Below, piece after piece: positions 60,314-64,000 of a DNA stretch of 64,000 nt. How positions within the stretch are numbered: position 1 is the first letter of the stretch; each line of letters begins with the position of its first letter. The notes below the pieces were generated by a model that was given only the letters and a program-made list of their open reading frames with translations, was not told the origin of the DNA and searched no databases. The stretch is from Pseudomonadota bacterium (GTDB taxonomy: Bacteria > Pseudomonadota > Gammaproteobacteria > Burkholderiales > SG8-39), in assembly GCA_040752005.1 (NCBI GenBank), contig JBFMFX010000002.1:64824-128823 (forward strand), given 5' to 3'. Made by a program: the position numbers and the translations under genes.

Positions 60314-61824
60314 CGCGCGAAGTAGCGCTCGAAGAAGTAACAGCCCCGCACCGGAAGCCAGGCGGGAATGCGGTAGTAGCGCCGACGCACCTCTTCGAGC
60401 ACGCCACCGCGATAGGCGGCGTAGTCGAAGCCGCGCCCCAGCACCGCGTAGAAGCGCACTCCGCGCAGCTCGATCGGCCGCACCTCGAGCGACCGGAAAT
60501 AGGGCCGGTAGTCCTGTTCCGTGGGCGGTTCGCGCCGCAGCACCGCCAGATCGCGGCCGTCATAGCGCCGCCAGTCGGTAAGGATATCGTCGTGCCGCGC
60601 GTGCGAGGAGCCGGTGCCGAATACCGGCACGTCGCCTCCGGTGTGCCAGGCGAGCAGCGCGGCGGTCGAGTAGCTGTCGGCGGCAAGCACGCTGCCGGCC
60701 GGCGCCGCCCGCGCGGCGAGTGTTCCCGCCTCGGAGAGGAGCACCAGCCCTCGGTACAGGCGCGTACCGCTCCAGGTTTCGAGCGGCAGCGCGGCGAGCG
60801 CCGCCGCCGCCGCGACGTGCAGCGCGGCGAATGCGGCGAAGAAGCGCGCCGCGCGCGCGAGCGCCGCCGGCTCCAGCGCGAGCGCAAGGCTTGCCGCGAG
60901 CGCGGGCAGAAAGCCGAGCAGCCAGTGCAGGCCGATGCGCTTGACCGGCGAGAGCGCAGCAAAAACGGCCAGAGGAACGAGCCACGCCAGAAACAGCGCG
61001 CGGCCGGCCGGCTGTGCCCACGCCGCCGCAAGCCGCCCGCGGCCGCGCCAGGCGAACCACAGGAGCGGCGCCGCGAGGTAGGCGAGCGCGGCCGCGTACA
61101 GCGCCGGCGTCGCGAGCGACCAGCCGCCGTCGTCCTGATGGCGGTTGATCGCGTTGAACATCACGTTCGCCCAGCAGGCGTTCGCGTTCCACCACAGATT
61201 GGCGAGCACCGCCGGCGCCGCGCCCGTGAGCACCAGCCCGAGCGCGCCCCAGCGGCGCGCGCTCACCGCCCAGGCGAGGTACGCGAGCCCGAGCAGCACC
61301 GCGAGGTATTTGGAGAGGAACGCGAGCCCGAGCAGCACGCCGGCGGCGAAGAAGAGAAAACCGGCACCCCGCCCTTCGTCCTCCGCTCGCGCTGCGCCGA
61401 GGGCGAATGCCGTCGCCGAGGCGGCCGCGAACACCATCAGGGGCGAATCGGTGGTGACGAGCACGTTCCAGACGTTCATCGGCGCAAGCAGCACGCACAG
61501 TGCGGCGAGGCTTGCGGTGTCCGCGTCGCGACACAGCTCGCGTGCGAGCGCCGCCCGCACGATGAGCGCCGCGGCGAGCGGCGCAAGCGTCGCCGGTAGC
61601 CTCAGGACCCACTGCGCGTCCGACACCGACAACAGCGGCGCGAGCAGCCAGCCGATCATCGGCGGATGGTCGTAGTAGCCCGCCGCCGCGTGCCGGCCCC
61701 AGAGCGCGAAATAGGCCTCGTCGGCGGTGATCGGCGCTGCCGCCGACAGCCACAACCGGAAGACGAGCGTTGCGGCCGCCGCGACCCAGAACCAGTGCCG
61801 CGGCGCGAGCGCCGCGCCGCTCAA
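60310..61824 (-). CDS. GT-C fold glycosyltransferase (family 39 / ArnT-PMT-like)
   Basis: ITADEAYFALWGRHAAAGYYDHPPM motif with many TM helices. The TTG at 61824 overlaps the aroG TGA. The tracked ORF extends to 62106 through the aroG 3' end in another frame. Confidence 0.8.
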   Translation of the reverse strand: MSGAALAPRHWFWVAAAATLVFRLWLSAAAPITADEAYFALWGRHAAAGYYDHPPMIGWLLAPLLSVSDAQWVLRLPATLAPLAAALIVRAALARELCRDADTASLAALCVLLAPMNVWNVLVTTDSPLMVFAAASATAFALGAARAEDEGRGAGFLFFAAGVLLGLAFLSKYLAVLLGLAYLAWAVSARRWGALGLVLTGAAPAVLANLWWNANACWANVMFNAINRHQDDGGWSLATPALYAAALAYLAAPLLWFAWRGRGRLAAAWAQPAGRALFLAWLVPLAVFAALSPVKRIGLHWLLGFLPALAASLALALEPAALARAARFFAAFAALHVAAAAALAALPLETWSGTRLYRGLVLLSEAGTLAARAAPAGSVLAADSYSTAALLAWHTGGDVPVFGTGSSHARHDDILTDWRRYDGRDLAVLRREPPTEQDYRPYFRSLEVRPIELRGVRFYAVLGRGFDYAAYRGGVLEEVRRRYYRIPAWLPVRGCYFFERYFAR

Positions 61825-63134
61825 GCGGTGCTCGCGCGCCGCAGCGCCTTCGCCGGGCGCGAGCCTCGCGCCGCCGGCCGCCCGCGCCCTTCGTCCTTGC
61901 GCGCTCTCCGGCGCGCGCGACTTGCGCCCTTCCCAGCCTCCTGGCGCGCGCTGCTTGCGCCCTTCCCGGTCTCCTGGCGCGCGCTGCTGGCGCCCTTTCC
62001 GACCTCCGGGTGCGCGCGGCCCATGCCCGTCTTTACCTCCCGGCGCGCACGTACGGCATCGGCCAGCACTTGCAGCACCGCGACCGAGTCCTCCCAGCCC
62101 AGGCACGCATCGGTGATGCTCTGACCGAACACCAGCGGCCGGCCCGGCTCCAGATCCTGACGGCCCTCGACGAGGTTGGACTCGATCATTGCGCCGATGA
62201 TGCAGTGCTCGCCGGAGGCGATCTGCGCCGCCACCTCGCGCGCAACGTCAATCTGGCGCCGAAACTGCTTGGCCGAGTTGGCGTGCGAGCAGTCGATCAT
62301 CAGGCGACAGGGAAGCCGCGACTTCGCCAGCTCCTCGCAGGCGGCCCTGACGCTCGCGGCGTCGTAGTTGGGCGTTCGTCCGCCGCGCAGGATGATGTGG
62401 CAGTCCTCGTTGCCGCGCGTCTCGACGATCGCCACCTGCCCGCTCTTGTGCACCGAGAGAAAATGGTGCTTCTGGCGCGCGGCGAGGATCGCGTCCACTG
62501 CGATGCGGACGTTTCCTTCGGTGCCGTTCTTGAACCCGACGGGCGCCGAGAGCCCCGAGGCAAGCTCGCGGTGCACCTGGCTCTCGGTGGTGCGGGCGCC
62601 GATCGCCCCCCAGGCGACGAGATCGCCGATGTACTGCGGCGAGATGACGTCGAGGAACTCGCAGCCGGCGGGCACCCCCATCTGGTTGATGCGCAGCAGC
62701 AGGTCGCGCGCGATCCGCAGCCCCTCGTTGATGCGGAAGCTGCCGTTCAGATACGGGTCGTTGATGAGCCCCTTCCATCCTACGGTGGTCCGCGGCTTCT
62801 CGAAGTACACCCGCATCACCACCTCCAGTTCCCCGGCATGGCGCGCGCGCTCGACGGCGAGGCGCTCGGCGTAGGCGAGCGCCGCCTGCGGCTCGTGGAT
62901 CGAGCACGGACCGATCACCACCAGCAGCCGGTCGGAAGCCCCGTGCACGATCTCGCGGATGCGGCGCCGGGTGTCGCCGACCAGGCGTTCGACCGCGGTG
63001 CCCTGGATCGGAAAAAAGCGGATCAGGTGCTCCGGCGACGGCAGCGGAACGATGTTCTCGATGCGCTCGTCGTCGGTGAGCGAGGTCCGATCTGCGGGAA
63101 TCGGCCCGAGGAAGCTGTCGGCGGCAGTGGTCAT
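61821..63134 (-). CDS. aroG: 3-deoxy-D-arabino-heptulosonate-7-phosphate synthase, class I alpha, with a 72-aa C-terminal extension
   Basis: Collinear with AroG-type enzymes (GPCSIHE, KPRTTVGWKGL, GARTTESQVHRELASGLS, IDCSHANS, ITDACLGWEDS...ADAVRARR). CAGGAG Shine-Dalgarno 6 nt before the ATG at 63134. Confidence 0.93.
   Translation of the reverse strand: MTTAADSFLGPIPADRTSLTDDERIENIVPLPSPEHLIRFFPIQGTAVERLVGDTRRRIREIVHGASDRLLVVIGPCSIHEPQAALAYAERLAVERARHAGELEVVMRVYFEKPRTTVGWKGLINDPYLNGSFRINEGLRIARDLLLRINQMGVPAGCEFLDVISPQYIGDLVAWGAIGARTTESQVHRELASGLSAPVGFKNGTEGNVRIAVDAILAARQKHHFLSVHKSGQVAIVETRGNEDCHIILRGGRTPNYDAASVRAACEELAKSRLPCRLMIDCSHANSAKQFRRQIDVAREVAAQIASGEHCIIGAMIESNLVEGRQDLEPGRPLVFGQSITDACLGWEDSVAVLQVLADAVRARREVKTGMGRAHPEVGKGASSARQETGKGASSARQEAGKGASRARRRARKDEGRGRPAARGSRPAKALRRASTA
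61921..62019. repeat. 3 x 33-bp tandem repeat inside the aroG 3' extension
   Basis: The units are 61921-61953, 61954-61986 (2 mismatches against unit 1) and 61987-62019 (more diverged). A degenerate partial unit lies at about 61896-61920. In the aroG frame the units encode EVGKGASSARQ / ETGKGASSARQ / EAGKGASRARR. Confidence 0.9.
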
Positions 63135-63146
63135 TGCGGTCTCCTG

Positions 63147-63184
63147 AAAAACAAAAACCGCCAGGCATCTCTGCGCTGGCGGTT
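63147..63184 (-). terminator. Intrinsic terminator of the aroG leader (attenuator)
   Basis: The minus strand reads AACCGCCAG cgcagagatgc CTGGCGGTT followed by TTTGTTTTT. This is a 9-bp stem with an 11-nt loop, and it abuts the aroG Shine-Dalgarno. Confidence 0.75.
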
Positions 63185-63209
63185 CTGCGGGGTCCGGTTC
63201 GGCGTGCGG

Positions 63210-63275
63210 CTATCCGCTCCCCTCCGCCAGCAGGCGGTGGAAGTAGAAGAAGAAGCCGTAGAACCAGCGCGTCAT
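63210..63275 (-). CDS. Aromatic-rich leader peptide MTRWFYGFFFYFHRLLAEGSG
   Basis: A 21-codon ORF on the aroG strand, 25 nt upstream of the terminator stem. Codons 4-12 are W F Y G F F F Y F. Confidence 0.7.
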   Translation of the reverse strand: MTRWFYGFFFYFHRLLAEGSG

Positions 63276-63496
63276 GGCCGCGATTCAAGCACGGAAACGC
63301 CGGCCTGTCCACTTCGGCCGCCCCCCCCAGGGGCGCCGGGACGGGCAGCCGCCCCGCCGCCGGACGTCGCCGCGGCCTCGCGCACCCCGAGGCGCCGCGG
63401 CCGGCAGCGCACGCGTCGCGCGGAATTTGCGGGGGTGGAGGCGGCGTGCTAATTTTTTTGCGTCCTCGGACGATAGTAGAGGTAAAGGAGTTCGAC

Positions 63497-64000
63497 ATGC
63501 CGGCCGGTACGCTCGTACCCGCGCGCACCCCCGCCATCCCTGTGGCGGGCTTCAAGGACGTCTACGACGTCGCCGCCGTGGAGAAGGCGCTTGCCGAGCT
63601 GCCGCAGAGCGCGAACGAGGCGCTGCGCGCGCTCTACGAGAAGATGCTGCGCCTGGGCGGGCAACGGTTCACCGTCAAGCCCTCGGCGCTGCCCGAGATG
63701 GACAGCCTGTTCGAGGACCTGCCGAACTTCTCCGAGGTGCTGGAGGAGATCCGGCGCCAGCTCGCGCTGTGCATTGACTCGAGCGACCCGGTCGAGCTGC
63801 CGCCGATCCTGCTGCTCGGCGAACCCGGCATCGGCAAGACGCACTTCGCGCAACGCGTGGCCGAGCTGATCGGCACCGGTTGCGGCTTCGTGCCGATGAG
63901 CTCGCTCACCGCCGGCTGGATCCTGTCGGGGGCGTCCTCGCAGTGGAAGAACGCAAAACCGGGCAAGGTGTTCGAGACGTTCCTGAACGGCGAGTACGCC
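63497..64000 (+). CDS. AAA+ ATPase, Lon-like nucleotide-binding module (3' end outside the window)
   Basis: ATG preceded by AAAGGAG. Walker A LLLGEPGIGKTHFA. The downstream segment SSLTAGWILSGASSQWKNAKPGKVFE resembles the Lon ATPase region. The frame is open to the window end. Confidence 0.6.
   Translation, partial: MPAGTLVPARTPAIPVAGFKDVYDVAAVEKALAELPQSANEALRALYEKMLRLGGQRFTVKPSALPEMDSLFEDLPNFSEVLEEIRRQLALCIDSSDPVELPPILLLGEPGIGKTHFAQRVAELIGTGCGFVPMSSLTAGWILSGASSQWKNAKPGKVFETFLNGEYA

Follow-up and report, generated by a model that had tools for sequence, protein, structure and literature searches.

A predicted leader-peptide transcription attenuator upstream of the DAHP synthase gene, conserved across many Burkholderiales

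DAHP synthase carries out the first committed, common step of aromatic amino acid synthesis. How the gene for this enzyme is controlled is the question raised by one locus in a Burkholderiales genome, found in the 64 kb stretch of DNA analysed here (64,000 nt, hereafter the window), where a short open reading frame rich in aromatic codons and an intrinsic terminator precede the gene. The enzyme is of class I-alpha (aroF/G/H type), and its CDS, called aroG below, scores 524.5 bits against TIGR00034 (aroFGH), for which the cut-off is 173.2. This score is under the cut-off of the AroG equivalog and over that of the AroH subfamily, an ambiguous result on account of which no AroG, AroF or AroH feedback specificity was given to the enzyme. 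Enterobacterial DAHP synthase genes are under TyrR/TrpR control (PMC5343134), in agreement with the contrast to E. coli drawn in the initial annotation of this DNA; a search of the 64 kb window for the TyrR box TGTAAA-N6-TTTACA, allowing up to three mismatches, returned no match.

The arrangement found upstream of the gene suggests that it is very probably controlled by a ribosome-mediated leader-peptide transcription attenuator, and what is sensed is best read as charged tRNA-Phe, tRNA-Tyr and, usually, tRNA-Trp. The features concerned, all on the minus strand, are as follows.

61821-63134, minus strand: class I-alpha DAHP synthase gene (aroF/G/H type, TIGR00034 aroFGH), 437 aa
63141-63146, minus strand: Shine-Dalgarno sequence of aroG, CAGGAG, 6 nt before the ATG at 63134
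63147-63155, minus strand: U-tract of the intrinsic terminator, UUUGUUUUU
63156-63164, minus strand: region 4, terminator 3' arm CUGGCGGUU, part of a 9-nt inverted repeat
63175-63192, minus strand: region 3, terminator 5' arm AACCGCCAGC (63184-63175) with CCCC upstream (63192-63189)
63213-63231, minus strand: region 2, core GCUGGCGG (63231-63224) with a GGGGAG flank
63233-63247, minus strand: region 1 (UCU.CUUCC.CCGCC), 5' half of the 1:2 anti-antiterminator hairpin, taken from the folds
63210-63275, minus strand: leader peptide ORF, 21 codons and UAG, MTRWFYGFFFYFHRLLAEGSG
63240-63266, minus strand: sensor run, codons 4-12 of the leader, W F Y G F F F Y F
63283-63291, minus strand: extended -10 element TGcTTGAAT, ending 7 nt before the leader AUG
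63306-63311, minus strand: -35-like hexamer TGGACA, a 5/6 match to TTGACA

Read from the sequence, the leader ORF (63275-63210) translates as MTRWFYGFFFYFHRLLAEGSG, and eight of the nine codons from 4 to 12 are aromatic (five Phe, two Tyr and one Trp), exactly as first annotated. An in-frame TGA at 63287-63285, within the -10 hexamer of the leader promoter, means that no longer leader ORF is possible. When both strands of the 64 kb window were scanned for ATG ORFs of 8-45 aa having at least five aromatic residues in any nine, this leader was the sole aromatic-rich short ORF returned. The neighbouring ORF, which starts at 63497 on the plus strand, is divergent to aroG; hence the terminator between leader and gene cannot belong to a preceding gene.

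That terminator reads AACCGCCAG-11 nt-CTGGCGGTT followed by a U-tract (63184-63147). A repeat finder returned its arms (63184-63176 and 63164-63156) as 9 nt sequences, 100% complementary and 11 nt apart, and the tract TTTGTTTTT after the hairpin (63155-63147) is followed directly on its 3' side by the aroG Shine-Dalgarno sequence. A copy of the terminator 3' arm, CTGGCGG, is present at 63230-63224, corresponding to leader codons 16-18, and the repeat finder matched 63231-63224 with 63182-63175 as an antiterminator of 8 perfect bp, one base longer than the heptamer reported initially. In addition, the CCCC of region 3 (63192-63189) and the GGGG in the flank of region 2 are able to pair. Region 2 can take either region 1, which overlaps the last aromatic codons of the leader, or region 3 as its partner. 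Folded alone, the terminator hairpin has a free energy of -21.8 kcal/mol, as against -24.2 to -28.8 kcal/mol for the antiterminator with the terminator 3' arm absent, whilst the 1:2 hairpin in the window, CUUCC.CCGCC-UGCU-GGCGG..GGGAG, has one of -19.6 kcal/mol; its CCGCC-UGCU-GGCGG portion forms part of the minimum-free-energy fold. The fold of the whole transcript thermodynamically favours the terminator (-38.5 kcal/mol), hence antitermination must be kinetic, as in the trp paradigm. The 151-nt region as a whole folds at -66 kcal/mol (z = -3.05 relative to dinucleotide shuffles).

The locus thus has an ORF of end-product codons upstream of a biosynthetic gene, an intrinsic terminator between this leader ORF and the structural gene, and an antiterminator composed of the terminator 5' arm and a 3' segment of the leader. 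In the mechanism that we propose, transcription would proceed from TGGACA-17-TGcTTGAAT, starting on the A of the leader AUG or on an adjacent base, and the 21-codon leader would be read as a leaderless message. When charged tRNA-Phe, tRNA-Tyr and tRNA-Trp are ample, the ribosome would cross the F/Y/W run and cover region 2 as it moves toward the UAG, upon which the region 3:4 terminator would form and RNA polymerase would be halted at the U-tract, a single base short of the aroG Shine-Dalgarno sequence. Were any of the three tRNAs poorly charged, the ribosome would stall on the last aromatic codons and occlude region 1, freeing region 2 (GCUGGCGG and GGGGAG) to pair with region 3 (CCGCCAGC and CCCC) before region 4 is made; no terminator would form, and aroG would be transcribed. 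In transcripts that are not translated, hairpin 1:2 would keep hold of region 2, making termination the default. What hairpin 1:2 does, and how the element answers to the supply of amino acids, are both inferred here. The sensing of three end products would be sensible at this point, since DAHP synthase is the pathway's first common step.

To place the element in its wider context, homologues of the enzyme were collected from one genome per species, giving 80 loci of 62-83% identity, nearly all from Burkholderiales. An aromatic short ORF, with at least 5-8 F/Y/W in nine residues and at a distance of 100-250 nt upstream of the gene, was present in 56-57 of the 80 orthologous DAHP synthase loci. 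All leader-bearing loci also have a canonical terminator, consisting of the hairpin AACCGCC(A/G)G...C(U/C)GGCGGUU and then a U run, with at least five T directly after the hairpin. The groups with the element include Comamonadaceae and Oxalobacteraceae: it was found in Variovorax, Polaromonas, Ramlibacter, Hydrogenophaga, Acidovorax, Comamonas, Rhizobacter and Rubrivivax, and likewise in Paraburkholderia, Caballeronia, Janthinobacterium and Massilia, as well as in a Paenalcaligenes-like MAG (Alcaligenaceae-like loci) and one Pseudoxanthomonas. Among the loci examined, it is always upstream of the same gene, that for DAHP synthase. No aromatic leader ORF was detected up to 450 nt upstream of the gene in Rhodocyclales, Polynucleobacter, Methylophilaceae, a Cupriavidus contig and others, hence the DAHP synthase loci of this kind are presumably regulated otherwise; the loci without a leader are L020, L024, L027, L043, L049, L056, L057, L060, L063-L067, L071, L074, L076, L078 and L079. 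A variant was observed at L062 (2302-2468), where the leader, MANPVRCFSYFWFSYFACEGRGLPARGFETTSE, is longer and the terminator, GCGCGGGGCU...AGCCCCGCGC, is an unrelated GC-rich one of 13 bp, the CCGCC and GGCGG cores of the other loci being absent.

Codon totals over 56 leaders are 251 Phe, 104 Tyr and 46 Trp, with Phe present in all 56, Tyr in 55 and Trp in 43; in 21 loci the last sensor position but one is Trp. Beyond the aromatic run the leader peptides vary freely, there being a single invariant column among 26 peptides, and conservation at the peptide level amounts to F/Y/W richness only. Searches with seven representative leader peptides found no families at E<=10 in Pfam and NCBIfam, and an exact look-up of ten found none among 15 billion predicted proteins. 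In most loci the F/Y/W run ends 8-14 nt before the core of region 2, so that region 1, but not region 2, would be covered by a stalled ribosome. In several loci region 2 is followed by the leader stop only after 23-32 nt; a ribosome at the stop would thus not mask region 2 there. Judged from this comparison of sequences, the element is real and conserved across many Burkholderiales.

The distances downstream of the leader bear on the idea that the upstream ORF acts mainly on the translation of aroG, through coupling, re-initiation or occlusion of the ribosome binding site, which we regard as quite improbable. Such an effect would suit the position of the aroG Shine-Dalgarno sequence directly after the U-tract in the window, and leader genes have been proposed to raise translation by re-initiation (PMC4833913). 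However, 63 nt and a strong canonical intrinsic terminator separate the leader stop from the Shine-Dalgarno sequence, which is itself outside the hairpin. Moreover, the spacer from terminator to gene start is around 100-150 nt in several Paraburkholderia and Caballeronia loci, and in the Paraburkholderia loci the gene therefore starts too far away for coupling.

The leader itself appears to be preceded by a promoter rather than by a ribosome binding site. In the window, a promoter-like layout is formed by TGGACA (63311-63306), a 17-nt spacer, TTGAAT (63288-63283) and a further 7 nt before the ATG. The three closest loci (L001, L002 and L038) share the extended -10 TGcTTGAAT exactly, and about 30 others have TGnTAnnnT, mostly as TGcTACATT, at 6-9 nt from the AUG; an extended -10 at this distance was counted in about 34 of 57 loci. 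No SD-like motif (GGAG, GAGG, AGGA or AAGG) was detected within 18 nt upstream of the leader in 56 of the 57. Given its spacing from the extended -10, the transcription start probably falls at or adjoining the A of the leader AUG. This distance of 6-9 nt, together with the lack of a Shine-Dalgarno sequence, suggests that the leader ORF is probably translated from leaderless mRNA, which strengthens the earlier proposal of a leaderless or near-leaderless start; at the window locus, too, the -10 is placed for a start at the AUG and there is no Shine-Dalgarno sequence. Automated scans passed over these signals: a strict promoter scan reported nothing, as its rules bar -10 hexamers without A at position 2, which TTGAAT does not have, and the built-in promoter and terminator scan, the rules of which bar loops of more than 8 nt, did not report the terminator. 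Both misses are a limit of the tool and not counter-evidence. A different arrangement was noted in Paraburkholderia and Oxalobacteraceae loci, where TATAAA or TATAGT lies around 30-37 nt upstream of the leader AUG, with no Shine-Dalgarno sequence; in L040, L044, L046, L047, L048, L050 and L052 (Paraburkholderia and Caballeronia) this is TATAAA around 35 nt 5' of the AUG, again with no Shine-Dalgarno sequence. A run of eight G (ctgggggggg, minus strand) is present in the intergenic region at 63321-63328, just upstream of the putative -35.

Evidence for the alternative helices was sought by counting pairs in ungapped fixed windows, anchored on GGCGG in the leader and on CCGCC and GGCGG in the terminator. 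These replaced a MAFFT alignment of the full leaders, in which region 2 was one column out of register between clades; since best pairing around GGCGG was the basis on which the windows of region 2 were chosen, the counts lean towards structure. The terminator helix was paired in 92.8% of cells (53 distinct sequences), compared with 33-57% when the partner was slid by 1-3 columns, and four of its pairs have changed on both sides. For the antiterminator helix formed by regions 2 and 3, 73.2% of cells were paired in the windows chosen by best pairing, compared with 23-47% when slid; six pairs have changed on both sides, and contiguous runs of 5-12 bp are present in 56 of 56 loci. Antiterminator pair 5-24, which adjoins the core, occurs as C-G (21 sequences) or as U-A (17), and it tracks terminator pair 24-33 (G-C in 29, A-U in 21), hence three strands change together: those of L077, for instance, read AGCGGUU / AACCGCU / AGCGGUU. 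The switch from A-U to G-C is largely along clades, so the independent compensatory events are few. In Oxalobacteraceae, the terminator stem is shorter at the loop side and the antiterminator is extended on the other side, GGCGGU pairing with ACCGCC. The reading frame through the GGCGG core of region 2 varies, with 31 loci having the core at codon position 3, 23 at position 1 and two at position 2, which implies that it is the RNA of region 2, and not the peptide, that is conserved. There is likely a further antiterminator helix between the purine-rich flank of region 2 (GGGGAG, GAGAGG or GGAAGGA) and a pyrimidine-rich stretch immediately 5' of the terminator (CCCC, UCUCC or UCCUUC), the duplex between the flanks of regions 2 and 3 having a mean of -7.8 kcal/mol, as against -5.2 kcal/mol for shuffles.

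The terminator and antiterminator of the initial annotation are therefore borne out both at their positions in the window and, with co-ordinated changes and region 2 in register with region 3, across the loci. The small sequestering hairpin described with them is upheld in part: it belongs to the minimum-free-energy fold of the window, but has no alignable consensus across loci. Folded singly, 54 of 56 sequences form an equivalent of hairpin 1:2, but its energy, with a median z of only -0.84, hardly betters that of shuffles, and RNAalifold gave no consensus structure across loci for the segment of regions 1 and 2, as the register differs between lineages. Hairpin 1:2 is the weakest step of the model and is weakly supported.

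The same comparisons speak to a very improbable alternative, in which the upstream transcript encodes a functional small hydrophobic protein, or is an independent sRNA with its own terminator, and aroG is expressed separately. The terminated transcript would indeed be discrete, at around 125 nt, and would have its own promoter, and in Sinorhizobium the RNA and the peptide of the trp attenuator act in trans. Nevertheless, a conserved protein is hard to reconcile with one invariant column in 26 peptides beyond the F/Y/W richness, and with a conserved GGCGG read in varying frames; the element is invariably 5' of the same gene, and in the window the U-tract abuts the aroG Shine-Dalgarno sequence, leaving no room for a separate promoter. 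A role in trans would, besides, supplement attenuation in cis and not replace it. An equally improbable rival is a TRAP-like or riboswitch-like switch under the control of a protein or of a small-molecule ligand, to which the aromatic ORF is incidental, for although helices 2:3 and 3:4 would fit any terminator/antiterminator switch and hairpin 1:2 is poorly supported, the AUG, F/Y/W run and stop stay in frame in 56-57 loci despite the drift of the peptide, the distance from the end of the run to region 2 is nearly constant, at 8-14 nt, and neither an Rfam riboswitch or protein-binding leader nor TRAP-type repeated triplet motifs were matched.

Leaders with codons for several amino acids are familiar from the thr and ilvGMEDA operons of E. 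coli, where a shortage of any one of them relieves termination. Those leaders differ from the ribosome-mediated attenuator favoured here in sensing other amino acids, in serving other operons, in being SD-dependent and in being gammaproteobacterial. On the best reading, by analogy, the element would work like the pheL, trpL and hisL attenuators. With pheL-pheA (Rfam Phe_leader, RF01859) and trpL-trpEDCBA of E. coli it shares a short leader ORF with a run of end-product codons and an intrinsic terminator just 5' of the structural gene, and it would share the alternative 1:2, 2:3 and 3:4 hairpins and the sensing of tRNA charging by ribosome stalling. It differs from them in that the gene is that for DAHP synthase, not pheA or trpE, that Phe, Tyr and Trp codons are mixed, that there is no Shine-Dalgarno sequence and the promoter abuts the AUG (the leader being probably leaderless), and that it occurs in Burkholderiales, not Gammaproteobacteria.

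Attenuation of DAHP synthase genes has precedents. In Corynebacterium glutamicum, the aroR leader with a Phe-Tyr-Phe sensor lies upstream of aroF, which encodes DAHP synthase (Neshat et al. 2014; PMC11802643; PMC4046766), and is reported to respond to Phe, not Tyr, limitation (PMC11802643). Both have a leader peptide with Phe and Tyr codons before a DAHP synthase gene; however, aroR is actinobacterial and common descent is unlikely, the documented likeness being functional. The sensor of aroR has three codons and no Trp, and aroR has been experimentally tested, whilst the Burkholderiales element is predicted from sequence. In Acholeplasma, uORFC-13-1 is a predicted uORF with Phe codons and an intrinsic terminator upstream of aroF (Brewer et al. 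2021; PMC8632094). This element of Mollicutes has an RBS, unlike the present one, is restricted to the genus Acholeplasma and environmental sequences, and is unrelated in sequence, as the element here has no Rfam match. A leaderless transcript is found in the proteobacterial attenuator trpL (rnTrpL) of Sinorhizobium meliloti (PMC6614838), which nevertheless has Trp codons only, regulates trpE(G), and has documented trans functions of both RNA and peptide. Attenuators of aroF-tyrA in Vibrio are listed from Merino's database.

No Rfam family was matched at gathering score anywhere in the 64 kb window (70.4% G+C), nor any at E<=10 on the minus strand of 62900-63600, Phe_leader (RF01859) included. 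On the plus strand of the same interval, Methylosinus-1 was rejected as a chance match, its 13.4 bits being far below the gathering score (145). No description of the element in Betaproteobacteria was found in the full-text literature, which yielded precedents from other phyla only, although older attenuator surveys and databases may list it, and six characteristic peptide strings had no match in the full-text literature searched. Hence the element is apparently uncatalogued, whilst the kind of regulator is well known; its less common traits are the probable leaderless translation and the three-amino-acid sensor. A bolder version, in which an undescribed family spanning the Burkholderiales uses a leaderless uORF to read three tRNAs and so gate the committed step of the shikimate pathway in place of the TyrR/TrpR logic of enterobacteria, with the abundant terminated RNA or the peptide perhaps acting in trans like rnTrpL/peTrpL of Sinorhizobium, is a tentative and rather doubtful extension of these results.

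If the attenuator operates as proposed, it would reveal how the way into aromatic amino acid synthesis is controlled in a large bacterial order of ecological importance: attenuation, reading three tRNA pools together, would take the place of the repressors known from E. coli. For annotators, it would be a conserved element that is currently missed and has no Rfam model, and, should the leaderless reading hold, a further proteobacterial case of a leaderless regulatory ORF. Deletion of the attenuator should deregulate DAHP synthase where aromatic compounds are to be engineered in Paraburkholderia, Comamonas or Variovorax. To specialists, the finding would be neat rather than surprising.

Several other features of the locus were noted. 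The intergenic region shared by the attenuator and the divergent ORF is 357 bp long. This ORF (63497-64000, plus strand) is preceded by AAGGAG and encodes a Walker A motif, GEPGIGKT; its first 167 aa matched no NCBIfam model. No tRNA or tmRNA genes were found in the 64 kb window, and the many long overlapping ORFs at 58.7-63.5 kb are probably artefacts of high G+C. The NCBIfam profiles of DAHP synthase span residues 18-366 of 437 only, hence the C-terminal extension of the protein is outside the enzyme family. Within the CDS, a 33-bp tandem repeat (61906-62020, minus strand; 3.5 copies, 85% match) encodes repeats of the GKGASSARQE type, located in this basic, low-complexity extension of around 70 aa.
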